A stretch of DNA of 11,300 nucleotides, taken from a virus. Taxonomy: Duplodnaviria > Heunggongvirae > Uroviricota > Caudoviricetes. Below are positions 1 to 11,300 of this stretch, piece after piece. How positions within the stretch are numbered: position 1 is the first letter of the stretch; the number at the start of each line of letters is the position of its first letter. The DNA is taken from the IMG/VR virus record IMGVR_UViG_2778261544_000008, one strand, 5' to 3'. A program made the translations under genes and the position numbers. The notes below the pieces were generated by a model, which was given only the letters and a program-made list of their open reading frames with translations, was not told the origin of the DNA and did no database searches.

Positions 1-249
1 ATGCGCACACAGGTTGTATTGCAAAAATGGGGTAACAGCATTGCCCTTCGACTAACGGGAAACCTTAAAACCGTTCCGGGTTTTTCAGTGGGTGATATCG
101 TCAACGTTGAAATTAGTGAAAAAGGGCTTTTTGTAGAAAAGCCTGCACGCCGTCGCCTGAGTGAAGCCGAACTACTCGCCGGGATAACGCCAGTTACAGC
201 GCACGCTGACGAAATTGCCATCCCATTCAATGAGGAGGTTGATTACTGA
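1..249 (+). CDS. Type II antitoxin, MazE/PemI/ChpS-like (AbrB/SpoVT-type)
   Basis: 82-aa ORF starting MRTQVVLQKWGNSIALRL, which matches the MazE/ChpS N-terminal pattern (K-WGNS-A-R-P). Its stop (TGA 247-249) overlaps the ATG of the next ORF by 1 nt, the usual antitoxin-toxin arrangement. Promoter lies outside the window. Confidence 0.7.
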   Translation: MRTQVVLQKWGNSIALRLTGNLKTVPGFSVGDIVNVEISEKGLFVEKPARRRLSEAELLAGITPVTAHADEIAIPFNEEVDY

Positions 250-593
250 TGTTTGTACCTAAGCGTGGTGATATTTGCTGGCTGGATTTTGAGCCGCAGA
301 AAGGAAAAGAGATCGGAAAGTATCGCCCGGCACTCATACTATCCCATGAGCAATATAACCGACTCACCGGGCTTGTCATATGCTGCCCCATAAGTACGAG
401 CATACGAAATGCTCCCACAGAAGTTCCGGTAACAAATCTGGACGCCCCCAGCGTGGTAGCAACCACACTCATTCAAACCCTTGACTGGCGTCAGCGGAAA
501 GCGCGCTTAATCACAGAGGCAGAAGATGGGGTATTTAATGATGTGCTTGAAAGAGTCATAACCCTGATTGGTGGAGAGCATCTGCTTAAGTAA
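249..593 (+). CDS. Type II toxin, MazF/PemK/ChpB-family endoribonuclease
   Basis: 114-aa ORF with the RGDI-W-DF-P-KG-E----RPA-IL N-terminal signature of the MazF/PemK fold. Translationally coupled to the upstream antitoxin-like ORF. Confidence 0.8.
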   Translation: MFVPKRGDICWLDFEPQKGKEIGKYRPALILSHEQYNRLTGLVICCPISTSIRNAPTEVPVTNLDAPSVVATTLIQTLDWRQRKARLITEAEDGVFNDVLERVITLIGGEHLLK

Positions 594-596
594 AAG

Positions 597-614
597 GAGG
601 GCTGAGAAGCCCTC
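597..614 (-). terminator. Stem-loop between convergent genes, probable terminator for the capsid gene
   Basis: 7-bp perfect stem (597-603 / 608-614) with a 4-nt loop. On the minus strand it is followed by CTTTTA. It sits between the plus-strand toxin stop (593) and the minus-strand capsid stop (637). Confidence 0.35.
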
Positions 615-636
615 AACGTTACCGGAAATTTCCTTG

Positions 637-1908
637 CTATTCTTTCCAGTCAATCCCATCCAGTAAGCACCCTGCCTCATATTGCCCCACCACCCAGTCA
701 AGGTTACAGGACTCATAGAACGCGAGGCGATTATACTGAGGCTCGTTTTTTACCAGGCCACGAACGGAACCACGCTGCCAGTACAGACACAGATTGGCAA
801 GAGGTGTGATCAATACAGCATTGTCCGGGAAAAATGGAACGGTCACAGCCGGGAGATTCCCCAGAACGGGATTTTTAATGATTTCCTCGTTAAGCAAAAT
901 TTCCTGATTCATCTGCGATGGATCAAGACGGTTTATCAAAGGCCATTGCTTACGGACCAGCGTATTGTGACTGCATACGGCCACAATGCCTTCCTGCCAC
1001 TGTTCATCAATCATGGATTGCCAGGCATCCAGAACGAGCGCATCTATCGTATGGTGTGTACCGCGTGTATTACTTTTCGGTGATGAAACAGAAAGGCCGC
1101 TGATAACCCTTCCCGCCGCTTCATTTCGAAACTTCTGCAACCAACCCACGCCGCAATCGTCACGCCCCGGATATGTTTCAGGGTCAGATTCGGCGGCATA
1201 ATGTGTGCCGTTAAAACCAATCTGAATTAAATCCAGCCATTTCCGGCGTTCAAAAGCGGCCCGCGCACTTCCTTCAAGGCCGTTTGCGGATGCGTGAGCA
1301 TCGGCATTGTCGTAGCTCAACGCAAAATCAAAATTAACCTGCTCGCAGCGGTAGCCCCTTGAAACCAGTGAATGCGCCTGTAGTGGCGAACGGCGCTCGT
1401 GAGGTGGCGATGTGCGTGCCAACGGCCCCGAAGCGTCTACCAGCACAACCCGACCTGATATATCCGTAACAGGCACGGGAGTTATTTCAGCAAGGAAATT
1501 TGCCTGCCATCCACTGGCAAGCGTTGCACTCTGGCGGGGAACGGGTTCAACTTCTGACGAATAGCGCGCAGTGTCACCGGAAAAGTGCAAATCCTTCGGA
1601 TGTTTTCCGGTTATCGACTCGATAGCGCAATTGAAAACCATCTGAGCCTGTTGATTTCGTTGTGATACAACAGAATCAGCAGTGCAATTATAACGCTCAA
1701 TGCCGTCGTTATTACCCCCACCGCTTGCAGTATGCAGGGTGTGAAGCTCAAGCTCACGCTCCAGTTTTTGATATTCATTGTCCAGCGCGCGACGCGTCTC
1801 ATCGCTTATGCTTGCTGTGTTTGCTTTCAGGCGATTCCGGGACATTAATCCCCTGAGTCGGCTCACTATATCAGCGCCGTGCAAATGTGGAGTATTCAGA
1901 CCGCCCAT
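637..1908 (-). CDS. Major capsid protein, P2 gpN-like; start codon uncertain
   Basis: Several blocks match my recollection of P2 gpN: CEQVNFDF, IGFNG, VGWLQKFRNEAAGRVIS, IDALVLDA, LGNLPAVTVPFFPDNAVLITPLANL, YESCNLDWVVGQYEAGCL. The homologous region begins near the ATG at 1641-1639. The frame is open up to 2085. An ATG at 1908-1906 overlaps the upstream ORF's stop as TAATG. Confidence 0.75.
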   Translation of the reverse strand: MGGLNTPHLHGADIVSRLRGLMSRNRLKANTASISDETRRALDNEYQKLERELELHTLHTASGGGNNDGIERYNCTADSVVSQRNQQAQMVFNCAIESITGKHPKDLHFSGDTARYSSEVEPVPRQSATLASGWQANFLAEITPVPVTDISGRVVLVDASGPLARTSPPHERRSPLQAHSLVSRGYRCEQVNFDFALSYDNADAHASANGLEGSARAAFERRKWLDLIQIGFNGTHYAAESDPETYPGRDDCGVGWLQKFRNEAAGRVISGLSVSSPKSNTRGTHHTIDALVLDAWQSMIDEQWQEGIVAVCSHNTLVRKQWPLINRLDPSQMNQEILLNEEIIKNPVLGNLPAVTVPFFPDNAVLITPLANLCLYWQRGSVRGLVKNEPQYNRLAFYESCNLDWVVGQYEAGCLLDGIDWKE

Positions 1909-2618
1909 TACTGCCACCCCCGGCAGAGTTCTCTGCCCTCCGCAAGGTCGCGCATTTTTTCTGGATTCTGTCGCGCCGCGCTCCATTGTACAGGTGAAGG
2001 GGCGTTCCTGATTGCGCGGCTTACCGAATCCGGGAGTTTCTCCGGGCAATAACGCAGCGGGCTGGAGGTGTCGCTTTCGGTATCGTTAATCCGGCCGCGA
2101 ATCATCCCGACACTTTCAGCAGTATCTGTCGCTTTCAGTGTTTCGCATATTTTCTTTTCTGCGTTATACAGCGGCTGGCCAAGCAGCTCACATAAACCAC
2201 GAATCAATAACAGAGCAGGGGTCAGCTCGTTAATCAGTTCGGGAAGTGCTTTTGCAAATATCTCTGCCCGCAACTTATTATCAATGCTTTCGTAAGCACA
2301 ACCAGCCTCTGCCGCGTTATAACGACACTCCAGTAGCCTGATGCGCGCCTCATCATGCAGCACCCGCAGACGCTCAAGATTTTCTCGCGCCACACCCGCC
2401 TGAATGGATAATTTCGCGGAGGCTTCCGTTTTTACGCCCAGCGCAGACAGGATTGAGTTCTGCCAGTCACGATCGAGAGATTCCAGCTCCCCTTTCGTCT
2501 GTTCGATAGTTGCTTCCAGATTGGTGATTAATGATTCCTGTTCACTGAGTTTTGCCATGGCTGCATCAAACTGTGCTTTACATACCTGATGTTCGGCGCT
2601 TGCCTGAGTTATATCCAT
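1908..2618 (-). CDS. Helical or coiled-coil protein, candidate capsid scaffold (Sid/gpO-like role)
   Basis: 236-aa ORF with a good SD (CAGGAGcaaatATG). The N-terminal two thirds are heptad-like and helical. It lies immediately upstream of, and overlaps, the capsid gene. Its last ~45 codons overlap the capsid-frame ORF and look low-complexity. Confidence 0.5.
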   Translation of the reverse strand: MDITQASAEHQVCKAQFDAAMAKLSEQESLITNLEATIEQTKGELESLDRDWQNSILSALGVKTEASAKLSIQAGVARENLERLRVLHDEARIRLLECRYNAAEAGCAYESIDNKLRAEIFAKALPELINELTPALLLIRGLCELLGQPLYNAEKKICETLKATDTAESVGMIRGRINDTESDTSSPLRYCPEKLPDSVSRAIRNAPSPVQWSAARQNPEKMRDLAEGRELCRGWQ

Positions 2619-2783
2619 TATTTGCTCCTGTAATACATTTTTTTACTTACGCCGATTTTTTCCATATTGCGTAATACATTCCAGCCGATTTTGTTCTCGT
2701 AATACGCTCACAATACTGTTGTATTACGCTTTCTTATATCGCGGGTGTTAAATCCCGGCATAAACAATCAGGGAGGCAACACG
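2619..2783. promoter_or_regulatory. Divergent promoter/operator region with clustered GTA(A/T)TAC palindromes
   Basis: 165-bp intergenic region between the minus-strand scaffold-like gene and the plus-strand RHH-like gene. It holds four copies of GTAATAC/GTATTAC (2630, 2671, 2699, 2721) and a 2-unit direct repeat gccgatttt...cgtaatac. One copy abuts the SD of the scaffold-like gene. Confidence 0.5.
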
Positions 2784-3017
2784 ATGAAAAAACAAAAGAA
2801 AATGCGATGCGTATTACGCTGTATTCGTATCCCGCACGAAATCGACCATAAAATAAATCAGATATGTCAGGACAGAGAGATGAACTACTCCCAGTGCGTC
2901 AGAATGTTTATCAGTCAGGGAATTAAGGCCGGGGAAACGCAGGAAGAAGACTGCAACGGGCGCAATGTAGCGGGGGATGTGTGGGCCTGGGCAAATGACC
3001 AGAACCACACGACGTAA
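2784..3017 (+). CDS. Small DNA-binding protein, ribbon-helix-helix-like (putative repressor)
   Basis: 77-aa ORF with a strong SD (GGGAGG, 7-nt spacing). The N-terminus has a beta-strand then two helices (MRCVLRCIRIP-HEIDHKINQICQDRE-MNYSQ-CVRMFISQGIK), typical of CopG/Arc-type RHH proteins. Divergent from the capsid operon. Confidence 0.45.
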   Translation: MKKQKKMRCVLRCIRIPHEIDHKINQICQDREMNYSQCVRMFISQGIKAGETQEEDCNGRNVAGDVWAWANDQNHTT

Positions 3018-3067
3018 TACAGAAATAACGCAGCCGGTCACACTCGCTGGCTGTGTTATACAAATCA

Positions 3068-3250
3068 CTATGAAGTTTTCGACTTCCTGCGCTTAGTAAT
3101 GCGTACAAACGACTCAAGCGTACAAAAACAAGCCCCACACTCAATATTATTGCACTGGTAATACGTTCTGTAGATGTTTTGTTCGTGTTCTTCCAACGAA
3201 CGACCACGGGTGCGGGCTGAAGCGCCACAGGCCGGGCAAGGGAAAGACAT
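3068..3250 (-). CDS. ogr: Ogr/Delta-family zinc-finger late-gene transcription activator
   Basis: 60-aa ORF MSFPCPACGASARTRGRS...YYQCNNIECGACFCTLESF. The C-x2-C-x22-C-x4-C spacing and flanking residues match P2 Ogr (MFHCPLC...HQCQNVNCSATFITYES). SD GAGGAG lies upstream. Confidence 0.85.
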   Translation of the reverse strand: MSFPCPACGASARTRGRSLEEHEQNIYRTYYQCNNIECGACFCTLESFVRITKRRKSKTS

Positions 3251-3613
3251 ATCACGCTCCTCTTACTGGTGTGAAATTTAACCTATTATATCTTCTGCCG
3301 CCCCCCTCTGGCTGTATCAAATAAACCCGCAGCAGTCGCCGCGTATTACGCACGGGCGCGCCGTTCCCATGCTCACTCGTCACATTCCCCGTATCAGTTC
3401 TCTCTTGCCGTAAGAACGGCTCTGGCTGGCGATAAAACTAACCCGGTCGGGGCATTCCCGCAGCCTTTAGCGAAAATGTAATTTACCCCCTGAAACGCGT
3501 GCTGTTCCCCCGTCACCTGCGCGCGAAAAACTCACCGTTTTTTGTGCACGCACGAAATCGCCCTCCGGGCGCGCCAGTACTTGGCCGGATGGGCAAAAAG
3601 TTACTCTAAAAAA

Positions 3614-3643
3614 TTGTGCAAATTTGTGCACTTTTGTGCAGAT
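3614..3643. repeat. Three direct TTGTGCA repeats at exact 10-bp phasing
   Basis: TTGTGCAAAT / TTGTGCACTT / TTGTGCAGAT starting at 3614, 3624 and 3634, in non-coding DNA upstream of the Ogr-like gene. Confidence 0.5.
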
Positions 3644-3862
3644 GAACAATAGCGTCAAAAAGAGTGCTTTTGAGAAATTTTTTATGGCAACTGCGCCGCG
3701 TGTATTACGTTTTTTACCATCCCCGCCGCGCATGTACATGCTTCATTTTTCTGCCAAACAACAGGGCAACTCCCCGTGACTGGCAGCCCCAAAAAATCAA
3801 TGATTGATATTGCATTTTTGTTAGAGGTTAGACCAGTTGTTTTGAGGCTCTGCCTCATAATC

Positions 3863-4185
3863 CGGTGGGGGGTGCGCAAAGCGGTTACAACGGTTACAAC
3901 AGTCAAAAACACCACTTAACAGCATGATTTTAATGGATATTGTTTGTAACCGCTTTGCGGTTACACTGCGGTTACAACGGTTACAGGTTTCAGAAAGTTA
4001 TTTATTATCAATCAGTTAAAAACTTAACTTGTAACCGCCTGTAACCTAACAAAACGGTTACATGTAACCGCGTTGTAACCGCTTTTGTAACTCATCGGAC
4101 CAGCTGCAATGTATTGATATATAATATAAAAATGAGTAATTTTAAATTTGTAACCGTTGTAACCGCTTTGCGCAACCCCCCCCGG
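3863..4185. repeat. Iteron array (TGTAACCG/CGGTTACA) with flanking inverted repeat; putative replication origin
   Basis: At least 13 full copies of the 8-mer in ~285 bp. The left half is mostly CGGTTACA, the right half mostly TGTAACCG, around an AT-rich centre. Outer arms 3874-3899 and 4148-4173 are exact reverse complements (26 bp). Embedded palindromes GTAACCGCtttGCGGTTAC and CGGTTACATGTAACCG. An AT-rich stretch lies at 4100-4150. Confidence 0.55.
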
Positions 4186-4380
4186 ACTTTAGCGCGACCC
4201 TTTAAAATGTTAATTAAACTAACTTATTCCGTCTCACTTTCATTAACTCTCTGTAATTGAAATGTGCCTCGCCACTGTTTGACCCTTTCTGATAATCAGG
4301 GGAGGGAGAGCAAAAAAAATTGATGGCGACACCGCTGCAATATGGCCACCATTGCATTGCTGTTACCGTTGGTTCTGGCC

Positions 4381-4408
4381 AACAAAAAAGGCCAGTGGAA
4401 AACTGACC
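4381..4408 (-). terminator. Probable rho-independent terminator downstream of the integrase gene
   Basis: On the minus strand: 7-bp stem GGUCAGU / ACUGGCC (one G-U pair), 5-nt loop, then UUUUUUGUU. About 30 nt after the int stop. Confidence 0.45.
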
Positions 4409-4438
4409 TCTTTTGCTGTGAATGTGGCGTTCTGCGGG

Positions 4439-5440
4439 TTACTCTGCTGGTTCTTTTTGTTCAGTGAATGCTATGTTAGCTATCGGGTTAAACCTCATGG
4501 CATCTGCCAGATAGTCGGGAGAAAAATGCGCATAAGTCATCGTTTGCTGAATAGTGGCATGGCCCAGAATCCGTTGCAGGGTAACGATGTTTCCCCCGTT
4601 CATCATGAAATGCGTGGCGAACGTATGACGCATCACATGAGTCGCCTGCCCTTTTGGCAAATCAGGCTTCACCTCCTGGAGGATCTCGCGAAACCGGAGA
4701 TAATCGACCTCGTACAGCGGCCCAGTTCGGCAGGTTTTAATCAGCGAGAGCACGGCATCAGACACCGGAACCGAACGGGACTTCCCGTTCTTGGTGTTGA
4801 AGAACGTCACGCGATTACCGACGATATGCTCCCCGCGTAATTCCGTCGCCTCACCCCACCGCGCCCCCGTGGAGAGACACAGAATGGCGACACGACGCGC
4901 ATCACCTTCGAGTCGCTCAAGAAGCCGCTCAATCTCATCATCAGAAAGAAAGGCCATCTCTGTATTCTGAATTTTTAGCTTACGTATACTGCGCACGGGG
5001 TTCGGGTTGTGAAAGACCCCTGCTTCAATCAACACCGTGAACATGGTAGACAGAACGCATAAGTCACGATTAATACTGGACGGCATTAATCCGGCCTGTA
5101 ATTTCTCTGACCGATACTCAAGCATAAATTTTCGCGTCATCTGGTTGGCGCGCGGATCTCCCATTTCACGAATCACTTTCTCCAGCCGGATCCTGTAGGT
5201 ATCGCCGTAAGCCTGATTACACCCGTCAAGCATCCACCATGTATCAAGCAACTCTGATAATCGCCGCCGATCAGCAGGTTTAGCTAGCCATGGGTTATTA
5301 TGGAAATTCTGCAAAACATATTGTTCGAACTTCTCTGCACTTCCTTTCCTGGTAAAAATTTTACGTATCCGTTTGCCGTATGTCCCTTGCGGCCTGATAT
5401 CTAGCAACCATCTTCCATCATCCATCTTTCTGATCGACAT
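4439..5440 (-). CDS. int: Tyrosine recombinase, P2-type integrase
   Basis: Strong similarity along the whole length to my recollection of P2 Int (MSIRKMDDGRWLLDIRPQG..., ILCLSTGARWGEA, ATHVMRHTFATHF, LQRILGHATIQQTMTYAHF, giving the catalytic R, H-x-x-R and Y). Start taken at ATG 5440 (SD AAGGAG upstream), not the upstream in-frame ATG at 5476. Confidence 0.9.
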   Translation of the reverse strand: MSIRKMDDGRWLLDIRPQGTYGKRIRKIFTRKGSAEKFEQYVLQNFHNNPWLAKPADRRRLSELLDTWWMLDGCNQAYGDTYRIRLEKVIREMGDPRANQMTRKFMLEYRSEKLQAGLMPSSINRDLCVLSTMFTVLIEAGVFHNPNPVRSIRKLKIQNTEMAFLSDDEIERLLERLEGDARRVAILCLSTGARWGEATELRGEHIVGNRVTFFNTKNGKSRSVPVSDAVLSLIKTCRTGPLYEVDYLRFREILQEVKPDLPKGQATHVMRHTFATHFMMNGGNIVTLQRILGHATIQQTMTYAHFSPDYLADAMRFNPIANIAFTEQKEPAE

Positions 5441-5442
5441 AC

Positions 5443-8112
5443 TTAAGATCTCTCCTTGTAACTGAATATCCGGCATTTCAGCACTTCCGGCTCTCTGGCC
5501 TCGGCTACTCCTTTTCCGGCGTTTGCCTGTCTGGACACCTCACTACGAATGGTTTTGCGGCCTGTCAAAGGTCGGGAACGCCCGGCTCCGAGCAGCTCAA
5601 TCATTTCGCGATCTGTTCTGATCTCCACGCGGTGAATGGCGGCAGCCTGTGCCAGTTGCGGAATGCTGATAGCAATCCCTTCGCGGCATCCCTTGCCGTA
5701 GTGGTTTACGCCGTATTTTGTTATGCCGTCCAGGAAGTCGAACGCCTCCCAGAACTCCGTCACTTCCGGCAAGTCAGCCGCCGCCGCTTTAACCTGCGCT
5801 GTTGCCATTTGTTCCAGTTCCAGACATGTGGCATCAAGCCATTCATCCGGGATATCAATAACGCATTTCAGCGCCCTGACCAGCGCGATAAGTTGTGCGT
5901 GATTTTTGGCGATGCGGGGATGGCGAATATTTTCGCATCCGCAAAGGCGTTCCGTTTCAGCTGGCGACACTTCCAGGAACGTTTGCATAATCGCCCGTTC
6001 CTGACTTACCGCCCGGTGAATAAAACCCGATACCTTCTCGACGGGGTAGAGTTCCAGCCGTCTCGCCGCCAGTCGGGTATCTGGTGAATGGCGTTTTTTA
6101 TCGGTGTATATGCGTATCAGGCGCTCAATAATTGCCGGTGAGGCGTTTACCCGCGCATTCTGTGCAATCACGATAGCGCCCTTAAAATCCGGATCATAGG
6201 TGTTGTTATTGTTGGCCTTAACACCACGAACACCGATACCGCCGCCGTTATAGAGGCTTTTCAGGTTATCGAAATCAAACGCACCTCTTTTTTGCGCATT
6301 GTCTCCCCGGTCTGCTTCAATCAGAACAACAGGCAATCCGGCGACCTGTCCAAAGGTGCGCTTCCAGCCCGCTTCTGATCCTTTGGTTGGATCAACGCCT
6401 TCGTAGTTGTCACGACCGCACAGCCGCCAGCAAAAATCAATCAATGTTGATTTACCCGTTCCGGGTTCCCCAGTGACTTCAAGGAAAGGGAAGGATTCTT
6501 CTTTATCCCGGATTTGTTCACTGAACAGCGACCCCAGCCAGAAAGCCAGGGTAATAATTCCCTTTTCGCCAAAAGCCAGCCAGAGATCTTCTACCCATGA
6601 CGTTGTAAATTCATCCGTTTTTTTGTAGTTAATCTGTAATGTGGGTTTTTCGCTTAATGGTTTTGCGTTTATGCCATCAATTTCAAAATAATCTTCGTCA
6701 TTGATTTCATAAGTTTTACCCTTGTAAACAGCAATATCATTAAACAGCCATGCCCCAATGGCCTTGTTGTATCCGATAAAATCCTGACCAATAACCTCTT
6801 TTATTGCAGGAAGGTCATTTTTTATTAATGCGTCAAGCTGCGTAGTCGTTCCGGTATAAATGCCGCCTTTTGCTACGTGCAACAGACGTTTTTTAAATTC
6901 AGATGCGGATGTTAATTGCCCTGATGTAAAGGTGTTTTTCACCGTAGCACCATCCGGGAATGTAATGCGGAAGTAATACCATGCTTCATCCGTATCATTG
7001 TTTCGAATGTAATAAAGCGGCACTGGGTTACAGTTTGCGATTTCTTTTACAGCGCCGGATTCCTTGAGTGCAATTTTGCGCGCTTCATCTTCGTCAACAT
7101 TTCGCTCATTAATGACACGCTCAACAGCCTTCATATGGCGCTCAATATCCAGCTTGAACCAGAAAACACGGTTATCAAAGGGAAAATGAAATTCCTTTCG
7201 CTCACGAAAGGAAAACATTATTAGTGCCTTATCTCGTGGAGATTTCGCCAGCAATAAATCACCGTAATAACGGTATCTTTTCACATCATGGCCACGCAGC
7301 TTTCCGGCGACGTGTAAATCATTCCAGTCGCGTTTATTGTTGTTTTTCCCTGGTAACGCCGCTGCCGTTCTCCAGCCGTCTTCGGCGCTGCGTTCTGCAT
7401 GTTTTTTCGCGTAACGCTCACCTGCACGCCCGTTATCCAGCGCCCACACGATAACCGGACGGGGATTATCCCCGCACAGCTTCGCCAGCTCTTCCAGCGC
7501 CTTATCAGGGTAGTTCACGGCAGACATGACAGAAACGGCCGCAATGCCATTCTGGTTAAGACTGATGGCATCAAAGATACCCTCACAAATCCAGATTTCT
7601 TTGGCCTTGCTTAAATCTGCTCCTGGATAAGCCCACCACAGCCCCTTGTAGCTGCCGGAAAAATTCGCCTTGCGTCCGAAGCGTTCCGGGCGATCTATGA
7701 TTCGCTCCCACCACACACCGTCAGCCAGCGTAAAACGCACAGTAGCGGCCTGTTCGCCGCTTTCCTTGTCCTGGTATCGCTCCTGGGTAAATGCTCCCCT
7801 CAGTGGCTCCACAGCAATATTGCGTGCTTCCTGAAGATAAGCTGCCGCCGCTGCGTATGGTTCATCTTTCGTACTGATATAGCGATCTGACCATGATGAA
7901 AACACATCCGGGTAAAGTTCTTTAGTCAGCAGGTCTACACCGCATTTATTTTCACGCCCGCAGTGTACGATGTACGGCCTTTCAAGGCTGGTAAACAACT
8001 CTTTCTTTCCACATTGCGGACAAACACCATACCGGAGGTAGTTATTTTCTTCTTTAAAGTTGTAATCACGAATAAGACGGTTAATAATCTCTTTTCTGGT
8101 GTTATGTTTCAT
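5443..8112 (-). CDS. Primase-helicase, P4 alpha-like (zinc ribbon + TOPRIM primase + P-loop helicase)
   Basis: N-terminal zinc-binding CPQCGKK...HCGRENKC, a TOPRIM-like segment EIWICEGIFDAISL...WALDNGRAG, and Walker A VTGEPGTGKST with a downstream VVLIEAD. ATG at 8112 is preferred; an in-frame GTG at 8130 is possible. The stop is 2 nt before the int start. Confidence 0.9.
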   Translation of the reverse strand: MKHNTRKEIINRLIRDYNFKEENNYLRYGVCPQCGKKELFTSLERPYIVHCGRENKCGVDLLTKELYPDVFSSWSDRYISTKDEPYAAAAAYLQEARNIAVEPLRGAFTQERYQDKESGEQAATVRFTLADGVWWERIIDRPERFGRKANFSGSYKGLWWAYPGADLSKAKEIWICEGIFDAISLNQNGIAAVSVMSAVNYPDKALEELAKLCGDNPRPVIVWALDNGRAGERYAKKHAERSAEDGWRTAAALPGKNNNKRDWNDLHVAGKLRGHDVKRYRYYGDLLLAKSPRDKALIMFSFRERKEFHFPFDNRVFWFKLDIERHMKAVERVINERNVDEDEARKIALKESGAVKEIANCNPVPLYYIRNNDTDEAWYYFRITFPDGATVKNTFTSGQLTSASEFKKRLLHVAKGGIYTGTTTQLDALIKNDLPAIKEVIGQDFIGYNKAIGAWLFNDIAVYKGKTYEINDEDYFEIDGINAKPLSEKPTLQINYKKTDEFTTSWVEDLWLAFGEKGIITLAFWLGSLFSEQIRDKEESFPFLEVTGEPGTGKSTLIDFCWRLCGRDNYEGVDPTKGSEAGWKRTFGQVAGLPVVLIEADRGDNAQKRGAFDFDNLKSLYNGGGIGVRGVKANNNNTYDPDFKGAIVIAQNARVNASPAIIERLIRIYTDKKRHSPDTRLAARRLELYPVEKVSGFIHRAVSQERAIMQTFLEVSPAETERLCGCENIRHPRIAKNHAQLIALVRALKCVIDIPDEWLDATCLELEQMATAQVKAAAADLPEVTEFWEAFDFLDGITKYGVNHYGKGCREGIAISIPQLAQAAAIHRVEIRTDREMIELLGAGRSRPLTGRKTIRSEVSRQANAGKGVAEAREPEVLKCRIFSYKERS

Positions 8113-8124
8113 ATATAAATCCCC

Positions 8125-8149
8125 CCCCACTGCACCTTTTGCAGTGGGG
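8125..8149. promoter_or_regulatory. Perfect 9-bp stem-loop just upstream of the primase start; attenuator or terminator-like
   Basis: CCCCACTGC-acctttt-GCAGTGGGG. On the plus strand it is followed by TTTTTATTAATT; on the minus strand it precedes the primase SD. It lies in the 43-nt gap between the 101-aa ORF and the primase gene. Confidence 0.4.
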
Positions 8150-8155
8150 TTTTTA

Positions 8156-8461
8156 TTAATTACTCGTTACTTCTTGTTCCCGGGCAATCCCTGCTGCTTC
8201 AGCCTGACGCCATGAAAAAATGCCGCCAGAAAGATGCATACCTGATTTTATTGATTGTAATTCCCGATAAATAATATTAGACAGAGATGTAATATCTTTA
8301 TTGGTAATTTCTGCACCCGCTCCGCAGCTTCTTTCATCAAACATGATAGACATAATGTTGACGAGATTAATTACATCCGTGAGATCTTCTTTTGCATCCT
8401 CTGTAAAAAAACCAACATACTCTTTATGTAAAAGATTTGCGTAATTCTGATTTTCAGACAT
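8156..8461 (-). CDS. Hypothetical protein, 101 aa, AT-rich
   Basis: ORF with SD GGGGAG and 5-nt spacing. Most of the gene is visibly more AT-rich than the flanking genes. No recognisable motif. Confidence 0.5.
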   Translation of the reverse strand: MSENQNYANLLHKEYVGFFTEDAKEDLTDVINLVNIMSIMFDERSCGAGAEITNKDITSLSNIIYRELQSIKSGMHLSGGIFSWRQAEAAGIAREQEVTSN

Positions 8462-8528
8462 AAAAACTCCCCGACCCGTTAAGGTCGAAATATAAATTTA
8501 ATTCAGTTATAAGTTGGTAATTCGGTAA

Positions 8529-8747
8529 TCAGGCGGAAAGCTGCGTCACCTTCAACGCTTTGAAATGTGTCATTCCCAGCTCTTCCAGCCCTTCGGCTGC
8601 GCGGCGTATGGCTTCGCCCGGCCCCGTTCCGTATACCGTTGCGTGTGCATGTTTGGTTAACCCACGTTTATTAACGGCATAACCCAACACAAAGAAACGT
8701 TTTTCACCACTGCCATTATTTTTACGGGATATTGAACGGCTTTTCAT
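8529..8747 (-). CDS. Hypothetical small protein, 72 aa
   Basis: ORF whose ATG overlaps the upstream ORF's stop (ATGA-type coupling). Basic N-terminus. Part of a compact small-gene block upstream of the primase gene. Confidence 0.45.
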   Translation of the reverse strand: MKSRSISRKNNGSGEKRFFVLGYAVNKRGLTKHAHATVYGTGPGEAIRRAAEGLEELGMTHFKALKVTQLSA

Positions 8748-8932
8748 TTCTTCACCTTTACCACTGATGCTGTGAGTTCTTCTTCTGGCAATTGATATTT
8801 CGGCGCAATTTCTTCCGTATACCTGATAGCGTCCCTTGCCGCTTTTCCTTTTGATTTATATTTACGTATCGTGTGGAAGTTTTCTTCCTCTCCTGTTACC
8901 ACATTACGCAATTTAATATGAATATCGTACAT
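8744..8932 (-). CDS. Hypothetical small protein, 62 aa
   Basis: Start chosen at ATG 8932, preceded by a strong SD GGAGGGG. The upstream in-frame start at 8962 lacks an SD. Stop overlaps the next ORF. Confidence 0.5.
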   Translation of the reverse strand: MYDIHIKLRNVVTGEEENFHTIRKYKSKGKAARDAIRYTEEIAPKYQLPEEELTASVVKVKK

Positions 8933-8934
8933 CG

Positions 8935-9117
8935 TTACCCCTCCATGATTTTTACTGCGCATTTGTGGGTTAATCGCCCCTGTTTGTCATTGCGGGAATA
9001 TGCCATACGACAGGCATCACGCCATGCATCGTCATAAGTCGGATATTCCCAGGAATGAATCATCTGGCGAACGTCGCCGTTCTGGTAGTTAATCAGAGTG
9101 ATAAGGAGCTTAAACAT
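8935..9117 (-). CDS. Hypothetical small protein, 60 aa
   Basis: Start chosen at ATG 9117 with SD GGGAGG. It begins 5-8 nt inside the end of the Icd-like ORF. Confidence 0.45.
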   Translation of the reverse strand: MFKLLITLINYQNGDVRQMIHSWEYPTYDDAWRDACRMAYSRNDKQGRLTHKCAVKIMEG

Positions 9118-9283
9118 GGCACGCCTCCCGGACACGGATACGAGCAACAAAGACCAGACGGGATGCCGGAAGCATGGCGCGCGCTTCGCGCTCACTGGCA
9201 GCGGTAACGGTATGAAGGCGAATATTTTTACCGTGGCACTGCATAAAGCGCCAGATAAAATCAGGGCGTGTTGATATAGCCAT
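9110..9283 (-). CDS. Icd-like small protein (P4-type immunity-region ORF)
   Basis: 57-aa ORF starting at ATG 9283 with SD GAGGAG (MAISTRPDFIWRFMQCHGKNIRLHTVTAASEREARAMLP...). It resembles small proteins annotated as Icd-like in P4-type elements, by recollection only. The longer 175-aa frame upstream has no SD. Confidence 0.4.
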   Translation of the reverse strand: MAISTRPDFIWRFMQCHGKNIRLHTVTAASEREARAMLPASRLVFVARIRVREACHV

Positions 9284-9535
9284 TTTGGCGGCTCCTCTAA
9301 CTGATTTACGGAGTCTCGCCAGCACGCTGCTAAACATGGTGGCGGGACGTAACAGGGTTAGCAGACTGGCGTTAGAGAAACCAGCGAGCGCAAAGGCTCC
9401 CCCATTACGCCCCGCCATAATACGGGGTAGGGTGGAATTACGGGCACAAAAAAACCGCATTACGGAAATATAGCGGCTACCCGCTCTAACAATCAGGCTG
9501 CTAAACCCGGCACCTGTTTTATGAGGTGCGGGCAA

Positions 9536-9565
9536 ACGATACGCCATGACAAAAAAGCGAGTCAA
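9536..9565 (-). promoter_or_regulatory. Candidate sigma70 promoter for the minus-strand early operon
   Basis: On the minus strand: TTGACT (9565-9560), 18-nt spacer, TATCGT (9541-9536). It would start a long leader (~240 nt) before the first SD-equipped ORF at 9283. Confidence 0.3.
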
Positions 9566-9699
9566 GAAAAATTGCAAATTATTTTGGCGATATTGCGCTG
9601 ACTTATTGATTTTTAAGAGTAAAAAAGTCATTATCATTTCTGCCTATTGTTTCTTATTGTTGGTTTCAGGTGCATTAAATGCACATCCTTGACTGGTTG

Positions 9700-9731
9700 G
9701 CTCGCTAGTTTTAGCGAGCTTCTTTTTTTTT
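9700..9731 (+). terminator. Rho-independent terminator, plus-strand orientation
   Basis: Perfect 8-bp stem GCTCGCTA / TAGCGAGC with loop GTTT, followed by TTCTTTTTTTTT on the plus strand. No annotated plus-strand gene feeds into it. Confidence 0.55.
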
Positions 9732-9831
9732 GCTCTGCTGTCAGTACTTGGCCTCCTTTCCCCACATGTAGCAATACGTTCAGATCAGTAAGTTTTGCCA
9801 CCCAGTGATGGACGCAATAAACCACCAACGC

Positions 9832-10152
9832 TTATTCAACTCTGGCGCTACCGGATTCCCTCTCCCTTTTCTTTTTGGCGTTTTCGTATGGGTTATTCAC
9901 TTTGGCAATAACTGGCGGATTACGCAGCCACCACAAAACATCACTTAACAGCCAGGTACATGAGCAACGCCCCAAAGAGTGACGGGGAGGAAAAGCACCG
10001 ATCTTCTCCAGTTCCCAGCGCCGGGAGCGTGAAAGCGTGGTCATCTTTTTACACTTCTCTTCCCTGATGCGTTCTTCGCAGTCAAAACCATACTCGGCGA
10101 GTATGGTGCGGCGCTGTTCTGGAGTTGGTGGAATGAATGCGGATTGAGTCAT
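9832..10152 (-). CDS. alpA: AlpA/Vis-family DNA-binding regulator (excisionase-like HTH)
   Basis: 106-aa ORF with SD GGGGGA. The central segment LSRSRRWELEKIGAFPPRHSLGRCSCTWLLSDVLWWL fits the AlpA/Vis pattern (LSRST-YR...G-FP-...LG-R-V-W...V--W). Confidence 0.6.
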   Translation of the reverse strand: MTQSAFIPPTPEQRRTILAEYGFDCEERIREEKCKKMTTLSRSRRWELEKIGAFPPRHSLGRCSCTWLLSDVLWWLRNPPVIAKVNNPYENAKKKRERESGSARVE

Positions 10153-10247
10153 ATTTCCCCCTATGTTTCTGAACTTTCGGGGGAGATTTTTGTTTTACGG
10201 AGTTTTGAAAGCAAGTATTAAAGGTCTTATTAAGATGCTTGCTGGTC

Positions 10248-11300
10248 TTACTGAGATGATGCCTTAATCCATCTTGATATAGTACTTTTATCAAAGCGCA
10301 TATTGAGTCCTGCCTCTCTTGCTTCCGCGGTCAATATATCAGCAAGTTTTACCGGATTGTTTTCGAGTTCTTTATAATGAATAACAAGCATCGCACGAAA
10401 AAAATCCTTCATTGTTTTAGATAATCGTTCTATATTGTTTTTATTGGTGCATATATCTTTCTCCCCATCCTCAGAACTTAATATATTGTTACCCGCACGC
10501 AAATATAAAGTATCTGCCAATGGACTAACATAATCTTTTCTTAACTCGCTATTGGAGTTTGTAGCATTTTGTATTTTTAAAAAATCATTCTTTAAGATAT
10601 ATAAATCACCAATATCAAAAGAAACATCCTCAGTAACAATTACTCCTATATGTATATCAACGTCAGAAGCAATTATAATATTGCTATTAATTATTCGGTT
10701 GGCTTTAAACTTCTTATTAAAATCATAGTTGGCAAAAAAACTTCCCCCCAAAGCGAAAATGCCGCCTATTTCAACAAAATACTTATGGTATTTTTCTTGA
10801 ATACCTTTAAATACTGGTGGTACAACTGCCACACCTCTTTCATCCGTTGCTATTCGATATACACTATATATGTGATAATTTTCCCCATAATATAACCCCC
10901 TGTTATAATAATTTAACAAAGCAAATGCAGTATCAATTGCTATGTCACCAAATTTGGGCGCTACATATGAATGGCTTAGAGATTCACACATTGAATCAAA
11001 TATAATTCTCGACTTGTTTTTTATATAATTAAAACCATGGTGTTCTGCCGCCCTTTCTGAAATGGCATCAAGGTCAGATAACCGTGATTTACATGGTTCT
11101 GAATCCATAAACTTACGCAGACAATCGAAATTAACCACATCTTTTTCATCTGGGATATTTAATACTCCATATGCAGATTCAATTTTTATACAAATACGAA
11201 TGCAGCCTGTCACAGCCCAATGAATAAGATCATCAATATCGCAGTCTAATAACTTTGCCGCGCGCTCAATAGGATAGTAATCTCTTAGTGGTAACGTCAT
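10248..11300 (-). CDS. Hypothetical protein, 350 aa, strongly AT-rich cargo gene with HTH-like termini
   Basis: Uninterrupted 1053-nt ORF whose ATG is the last three bases of the window. Composition is far more AT-rich than the neighbouring alpA and primase genes. The N-terminus (IERAAKLLDCDIDDLIHWAVTG) and C-terminus (LADILTAEAREAGLNMRFDKSTISRWIK) look HTH-like. The central domain is unrecognised. Confidence 0.65.
   Translation of the reverse strand: MTLPLRDYYPIERAAKLLDCDIDDLIHWAVTGCIRICIKIESAYGVLNIPDEKDVVNFDCLRKFMDSEPCKSRLSDLDAISERAAEHHGFNYIKNKSRIIFDSMCESLSHSYVAPKFGDIAIDTAFALLNYYNRGLYYGENYHIYSVYRIATDERGVAVVPPVFKGIQEKYHKYFVEIGGIFALGGSFFANYDFNKKFKANRIINSNIIIASDVDIHIGVIVTEDVSFDIGDLYILKNDFLKIQNATNSNSELRKDYVSPLADTLYLRAGNNILSSEDGEKDICTNKNNIERLSKTMKDFFRAMLVIHYKELENNPVKLADILTAEAREAGLNMRFDKSTISRWIKASSQ

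Follow-up and report, generated by a model that had tools for sequence, protein, structure and literature searches.

The toxin-antitoxin pair at the left end of the window, by which we mean the whole 11,300-nucleotide stretch of the IMG/VR virus record IMGVR_UViG_2778261544_000008, is intact and ordinary: a toxin of the MazF/PemK family paired with an antitoxin of the MazE type. An integrative island some 13 kb long, belonging with the P4-like satellites, carries it as accessory cargo at the attR end, distal to the integrase. The content of the island further comprises an integrase, an AlpA-like regulator, a C4/CI-type RNA, an Icd-like protein, a primase, Ogr/Delta, and a homologue of the P2 capsid protein. 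We propose that this autonomously promoted MazE/MazF cassette serves mainly in addiction, that is, in stabilisation of the island, a reading to which we give a probability of roughly 60%. Because the pair is island cargo, functional tests of it call for the satellite and its P2-type helper to be present.

The features around the pair are as follows (window coordinates, strand, description, and source).

1-249, plus strand: mazE-like antitoxin gene, 82 aa (ORF; BLASTP against K-12 MazE)
232-238, plus strand: Shine-Dalgarno sequence GAGGAGG of the toxin gene, inside the 3' end of mazE (read off the sequence)
249-593, plus strand: mazF/pemK-family toxin gene, 114 aa (ORF call; Pfam PF02452)
587-614, minus strand: intrinsic terminator of the capsid-like (late) operon (terminator scan and RNA folds)
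597-614, between the convergent genes: stem-loop GAGGGCT-GAGA-AGCCCTC with a 7-bp GC-rich stem (terminator scan)
637-1908, minus strand: P2-family major-capsid homologue, 423 aa (Pfam PF05125, E 3e-72; RefSeq annotation in the near-identical record L001)

The initial annotation had described a MazEF-like pair convergent on a capsid operon. This description was borne out by the Pfam match of the toxin, the BLASTP match of the antitoxin to MazE, and the P2-family capsid gene on the minus strand. The capsid homologue is extended at its N terminus by about 120 aa; its gene closes the late module and runs towards the pair.

A PemK/MazF toxin and a MazE relative

By its sequence, the 114-aa protein is clearly a PemK/MazF toxin. 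In a profile HMM search it matched Pfam PF02452 (PemK_toxin) with 88.5 bits (cut-off 23.1, E 4.3e-25), and the match spans profile positions 1-107 of 109. The PHROG 'MazF-like growth inhibitor' matched it at 3e-27, solved MazF structures in the PDB at E values of 1e-16 to 1e-19, and K-12 MazF at 37% identity (BLASTP, E 5e-23). Arg26 of the toxin aligns with the catalytic Arg29 of MazF, and Ser49 aligns with MazF Thr52, also a functional residue of MazF; both R26 and S49 are invariant across 34 homologues. An AF2 model of the toxin reached a pLDDT of 73.6, with low confidence in the loops at residues 18-23 and 51-69. Its best Foldseek matches have target-normalised TM-scores (TMt) of 0.73-0.81, and the top 50 PDB matches are all MazF or Kid (E down to 2e-9, TMt 0.67-0.83); by Foldseek, then, the model has the SH3-like barrel fold of the MazF/Kid/CcdB type. 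The toxin is annotated as PemK/MazF in every one of the 40 listed among the 57 E. coli matches. Its subfamily (65-84% identity) occurs widely across Enterobacterales and Vibrio and includes proteins from Salmonella, Brenneria, Photorhabdus, Yersinia, and Vibrio.

The evidence that the 82-aa protein is a MazE relative is weaker but consistent. K-12 MazE aligns with it at 31% identity (BLASTP, E 9e-10), PHROG 4324 matches it at 2e-9, and phmmer against the PDB gave 7d2n_E (8e-5) and 1ub4_C (4e-4). Its N-terminal half is of the AbrB/MazE type and its C-terminal tail is acidic, with an aromatic final residue (…EIAIPFNEEVDY), and RefSeq names it as a member of the AbrB/MazE/SpoVT family. A Pfam search at E<=0.01 returned no match, and no curated HMM cut-off in Pfam or NCBIfam was reached. 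The AF2 monomer model is of low confidence (pLDDT 57), showing a beta-beta-beta-beta-helix arrangement with residues 60-82 unstructured, as would be expected for the monomer of an obligate dimer with a disordered tail. MazE 1ub4_C was the best fold match of this low-confidence model (E 0.025); a fold assignment from structure prediction was nevertheless dropped, the model being too poor. Both genes are already correctly annotated in RefSeq. By homology, the larger protein would be toxic and would cleave RNA, and the smaller would be labile and would neutralise it.

The pair shares several properties with E. coli MazE-MazF (b2783/b2782): the gene order, the sizes (82 aa for the antitoxin; 114 versus 111 aa for the toxin), the conserved catalytic Arg, and the predicted toxin fold. 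In the island toxin, however, Thr52 of E. coli MazF is replaced by Ser, and the pair sits on a mobile island rather than beside relA. Neither protein reaches its NCBIfam equivalog cut-off: the toxin scores 92.1 bits against NF007386 (MazF; cut-off 120) and the antitoxin 20.8 bits against MazE (E 3.6e-4; cut-off 113). The pair is therefore not the orthologue of chromosomal mazEF, and the toxin belongs to a distinct subfamily. Kis-Kid/ParD of R1 and PemIK of R100 belong to the same toxin fold family, and Kid (1m1f) matches the island toxin both by sequence (1e-6) and by fold.

Operon, promoter, and selection

The stop codon of mazE and the start codon of mazF share one base (TGATG, 247-251), just as in K-12 mazEF. 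With small co-directional genes, the antitoxin gene first, translational coupling, and a promoter of its own, the pair has the organisation of a type II toxin-antitoxin operon. Position 1 of the window is the A of the mazE ATG, and the promoter lies outside the window, as had been noted from the sequence. In L001, a predicted TAGACA-17-TATCCT promoter is found 66 to 38 bp upstream of the mazE ATG, which places it about 40-65 bp to the left of the window.

Comparison of island copies at hpt and at argW shows that homology upstream of mazE ends after about 90 bp; beyond that point each copy has its own integrase-specific repeats. A -10 element (TATCCT or TATACT) and two flanking TGTAGAYAC boxes are kept in the E. 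coli, Salmonella, Brenneria, and Yersinia copies, and the DNA around this conserved region is unrelated between these genera. The retention of the -10 element and the boxes amid unrelated DNA implies that the cassette brings its own promoter, which is probably autoregulated. We also considered an inverted repeat near the ribosome-binding site, CTGTAT-N11-ATACAG, as the main operator. It was rejected because its left arm is not conserved, and for the same reason the assignment of an operator stays tentative.

Between the E. coli and Salmonella copies, pN is 0.14 and pS 0.81 for the toxin gene, and 0.19 and 0.86 for the antitoxin gene; synonymous sites are saturated at this distance. As judged from these substitution rates, both genes are shown to be under purifying selection. 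At the protein level, E. coli and Salmonella are 79% identical in the toxin and 71% in the antitoxin, and the corresponding values for the rest of the island are 50% for the capsid-like protein, 35% for the 236-aa protein, 47% for Ogr, 54% for the internal integrase, and 22% for the primase. The pair is thus the best-conserved part of the island in this comparison.

Borders of the island and location of the pair

The nearest complete genome, NZ_CP080233, is 99.2% identical to the window over positions 1-10191, and there the window lies between hpt and gcd. The att core is a direct repeat, CATTACTTCTACA..ATGTTTCAT, with copies 12,993 bp apart, one of which forms the first codons of hpt and the other of which stands in front of gcd. 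The K-12 hpt-gcd intergenic region aligns with the outer flanks of both copies and contains nothing between them; it is an empty site. Between mazE and the att core there is a second repeat, ATATTGATACACnnATTGATACAC, which recurs beside the 403-aa integrase at the other end of the island, as is typical of integrase arm-type sites. These landmarks put the left border of the island within the beginning of hpt, about 255-285 bp to the left of window position 1. No gene unit of the island lies further out than the pair, which is separated from the attR core by about 255 bp; this supports the suggestion of the initial annotation that the pair may lie at an element border. Because the pair is enclosed by the att repeats and arm sites and is absent from the empty K-12 site, we conclude that it is island cargo and not a chromosomal locus.

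The att core is the 5' end of hpt (L001 11715-11746 and 24708-24739), and the island re-supplies hpt codons 1-8 with one change, MKHTVEVM becoming MKHYVEVM. The native hpt promoter region is displaced to the other end of the island, about 13 kb away. The island's own att-proximal integrase is encoded outside the window, to its right (L001 23338-24549).

The distribution of the pair follows that of the island. DNA of the pair is present in 57 of 5,426 complete E. coli genomes and absent from the other 5,369. The capsid-like module was likewise found in 57 of the 5,426 (megablast and sensitive blastn), and it adjoins the pair everywhere inspected; no E. coli chromosome was seen to carry the pair without it. 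In the sensitive blastn search, no diverged relatives of the capsid module were detectable in E. coli at the DNA level. No strain among the 5,426 E. coli genomes was found to have the pair at this position without the element. In ETEC1732, the same backbone and pair are associated with a different integrase at tRNA-Arg (argW)/dsdC, and this strain carries a copy at a second site as well. Islands in Salmonella are organised in the same way (primase, internal integrase, Ogr/Delta, a 241-aa protein, and the capsid-like gene), and in these satellites the pair converges on the capsid-like gene at three different chromosomal neighbourhoods. These data show the pair to be an internal part of the island and to travel with it.

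Variation in the attR-proximal slot

Although the content of the slot is uniform within the 57 E. coli genomes, it differs across the wider family. Nine further E. coli genomes have the primase backbone in common; in the four of these that were inspected, the capsid homologue is elsewhere, and Hok/Gef and a small hypothetical gene occupy the attR-proximal slot, both at hpt and at argW. In an E. coli island whose capsid-like gene is 44% identical, Hok/Gef follows that gene. In a Klebsiella island the slot is empty, with a tRNA-like stretch and then mug coming straight after the terminator. A Pectobacterium island has no obvious cargo in the slot and an AIPR Abi protein further in, and one island in Erwinia borders on genes for GmrSD and type I RM. 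When GTDB genomes were scanned with the capsid-like protein, one close locus and six capsids of P2-like prophages turned up, a result uninformative on the cargo slot. In the sister islands, the capsid module lies between the AlpA-like gene and icd.

The cassette can also decay without loss of the island. In another E. coli island at hpt (L026, 8426-8778), with a capsid-like gene 48% identical to that of the window, mazE is 95% identical and the hairpin is kept, and the toxin has been lost through a change of the start codon and an internal deletion; loss of the toxin with the antitoxin kept is indirect support for the predicted toxicity of the one and rescue by the other. In a Salmonella locus (L018, 8830-9000), the N-terminal half of mazE is missing beside an inserted relB/parE pair, and the toxin is intact.

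Conversely, the cassette occurs without the satellite. In Brenneria and Yersinia it stands alone, outside any satellite, and 15 E. coli plasmid records contain an orthologous pair. The plasmid toxin is 94% identical in amino acids (80% in nucleotides) and the antitoxin 74% in amino acids, implying that the two partners have diverged unevenly. In the one plasmid that was inspected (pRM10042-1; L031 5753-6345), an IncI-gamma/K1 conjugative plasmid, the pair lies between the relaxase gene and trbC. Toxin-antitoxin cargo on mobile elements is well known as a general phenomenon, and the slot described here is one more case of such modules at the ends of mobile elements, occupied by MazEF in this island and by Hok/Gef in its sisters. 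In the literature searched, neither MazEF in satellites nor this capsid-bearing type of satellite was described.

The hairpin between the convergent genes

A hairpin sits in the 43-nt spacer between mazF and the capsid-like gene, with a folding energy of -18.1 kcal/mol on the plus strand (z -3.0) and -16.3 on the minus strand (z -2.2). A U-run, CUUUUACUUA, exists on the minus strand only; it is encoded by 587-596 and overlaps the last codon and the stop codon of mazF. On the plus strand the hairpin is followed by AACGUUACC, with no U-run. Since the U-run is confined to the minus strand, the hairpin is a canonical intrinsic terminator for the capsid operon only, and for the plus-strand transcript of the pair it is only a 3' stem-loop lacking a U-run. 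The earlier proposal of a terminator shared by the two operons is thus only half right.

The hairpin is kept with the cassette even where the capsid-like gene is only 48% identical. In the Salmonella relatives, the stem is GGGGGCT/AGCCCCC, a two-sided change of one pair, with seven U on the capsid strand. Island relatives that lack the pair have unrelated terminators after the capsid-like gene, and the stand-alone Yersinia copy has its own U-run terminator. Most likely, the strong terminator of the late operon protects the toxin-antitoxin operon from antisense read-through.

Proposed role of the cassette

In MazEF systems, the antitoxin, which as a dimer represses its operon, is degraded faster than the toxin, an endoribonuclease of single-stranded RNA. 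By analogy, the operon of the island would be repressed by MazE dimers bound to the repeated TGTAGAYAC boxes that surround the -10 element, and the acidic C-terminal tail of MazE would neutralise the MazF dimer. Because MazE would be labile, loss of the cassette or arrest of its expression would leave free MazF, which would cleave single-stranded RNA and arrest growth. The main beneficiary would be the island, in that cells losing it, for instance by excision without re-integration or replication, would be penalised.

We rank addiction first on three grounds: the alternative occupant of the slot is Hok/Gef, orthologues of the pair are found on conjugative plasmids, and the island encodes a primase and contains iterons. 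Hok/Gef is the other classical post-segregational killer; in the sister islands, at hpt and argW as here, its cassettes fill the attR-proximal slot, although Hok/Gef is a type I system (RNA antitoxin) with a membrane toxin unrelated in sequence to the pair described here. At least eight CGGTTACAA/TTGTAACCG iterons are clustered at about 3880-4200, in a 1.2-kb non-coding stretch between the internal integrase gene and ogr, and this cluster is probably a replication origin. A primase together with an iteron-type origin makes an episomal state of the island plausible. As with the plasmid addiction modules Kis-Kid/ParD and PemIK, the carrier can be lost; unlike there, the carrier is here an integrated island of the satellite type. 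Because an integrated island is rarely lost, the benefit of addiction may be small.

A second possibility, raised already in the initial annotation and one that we hold to be less likely, is that the pair is anti-phage cargo acting by abortive infection. A non-helper phage that halts host transcription or degrades MazE would free MazF, which would cut host and phage RNA so that no phage is produced; clonal satellite hosts, and possibly the helper too, would be protected. The variation of the end slot across the wider family, from MazEF and Hok/Gef to nothing, with GmrSD and type I RM genes nearby in one case, speaks for this reading, as does a second slot, occupied in relatives by the Abi protein AIPR or by a HigBA-like pair. 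Both chromosomal MazEF and Hok/Sok are reported to limit certain phages. Against it, PADLOC models match neither protein of the pair, the slot is not variable among the 57 E. coli genomes with this late module, and the plasmid-borne and stand-alone chromosomal orthologues fit generic selfish toxin-antitoxin behaviour equally well. Addiction and abortive infection are not mutually exclusive roles.

Also in favour of abortive infection, the accessory slots of P4-like satellites are documented anti-phage reservoirs, and the toxin-antitoxin-like gop-beta-cII of P4 protects against lambda and P1 (Rousset et al., 2022; PMC9122126). The island resembles that hotspot in its small cargo of toxin-antitoxin type, in P2-type late activation (Ogr/Delta), in the position of the cargo after the last late morphogenetic gene, and, across the wider family but not among the 57 E. 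coli genomes, in a slot content that differs between related elements. The P4 hotspot is, however, defined as lying between psu and int, beside cos (PMC9122126), and the island departs from this arrangement: int is at the opposite end of the prophage, a capsid homologue stands in place of psu/sid, and the pair abuts attR. A search of the neighbouring genes against Pfam, NCBIfam, and PHROGs gave no match to psu or sid. The P2 cos 19-mer, with up to 3 mismatches, was not found, and no cos was identified; the result is uninformative, since the 19-mer used may be inaccurate or the cos of the island may differ. Nor was the P2 late-promoter motif TGT-N12-ACA found upstream of the late module, its single match elsewhere being at chance level.

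It is improbable, in our view, that the pair is instead coupled to the life cycle of the satellite. Late transcription activated by the helper (Ogr/Delta-dependent) would run head-on into mazEF during helper infection, lowering MazE and freeing MazF, and expression would thereby be biased to the satellite or the helper limited. The convergent layout of the pair and the capsid-like gene is kept over deep divergence, the capsid-like proteins of E. coli and Salmonella being 50% identical, and the overlap of the terminator U-run with the mazF stop codon, the two-sided stem change in Salmonella, and the persistence of the hairpin with the cassette all fit such a coupling. If it were true, the toxin would be a helper-sensing effector of the satellite, and its footprint would be the lasting association of the pair with the capsid-like gene in an island otherwise diverged to 22-54% identity. 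Yet a strong canonical terminator on the capsid strand argues for insulation, not interference; relatives work without a toxin-antitoxin pair in the slot, and the same cassette exists without a satellite. ACA is the site of E. coli MazF. Neither ACA nor the other motifs tested (TACAT, TAC, and ACT) are depleted in island genes relative to codon-resampled controls (abs(z) <2.2 in all but one small gene), a weak test, since this toxin may have another cleavage specificity.

Finally, the suggestion that the pair is simply the adjacent chromosomal locus, which its outermost position and its orientation opposite to the neighbouring island genes might seem to favour, is refuted, given that the pair lies inside the att repeats and arm sites, is missing from the empty K-12 hpt-gcd site, occurs in the same number of E. 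coli genomes as the capsid-like module, and accompanies the island to argW and to three Salmonella sites.

Further features of the island

The more unusual features of this locus are that the satellite has its own P2-capsid homologue and a second, helper-like integrase. The capsid homologue has a 236-aa partner of unknown family beside it (1908-2618, minus strand), and the island, of the satellite type, has no other structural genes. The capsid-like proteins of Escherichia, Salmonella, Klebsiella, Erwinia, and Pectobacterium form a clade of their own (41-52% identity), and true P2-like phage capsids are separate from it (<=41%). The second, internal tyrosine recombinase (4439-5476, minus strand) is encoded directly downstream of the primase gene. 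It is about 83% identical in nucleotides to a P2-like prophage integrase that lies beside Cox and gpA in about 300 E. coli genomes.

Two RNA families score above the Rfam gathering score, C4 antisense RNA (72.9 bits; 9335-9422, minus strand) and isrK (52.2 bits; 9448-9529, minus strand). They mark an RNA immunity region of the P4/P1 type, which adjoins the Icd-like gene. Further to the right, a 350-aa ORF without a family match (10248-11300, minus strand) adjoins the integrase. Beyond 10191 the window differs from its closest relative, and a gene is missing here from the argW variant; the region looks like a second variable accessory slot.

The pair had been placed on the strand opposite to the rest of the window, but it is not alone there: a 77-aa ORF at 2784-3017 is also on the plus strand. 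This ORF, which has no family match, lies between ogr and the gene for the 236-aa protein, and its size (76-77 aa) and position are kept in the Salmonella, Klebsiella, Erwinia, and Pectobacterium relatives.
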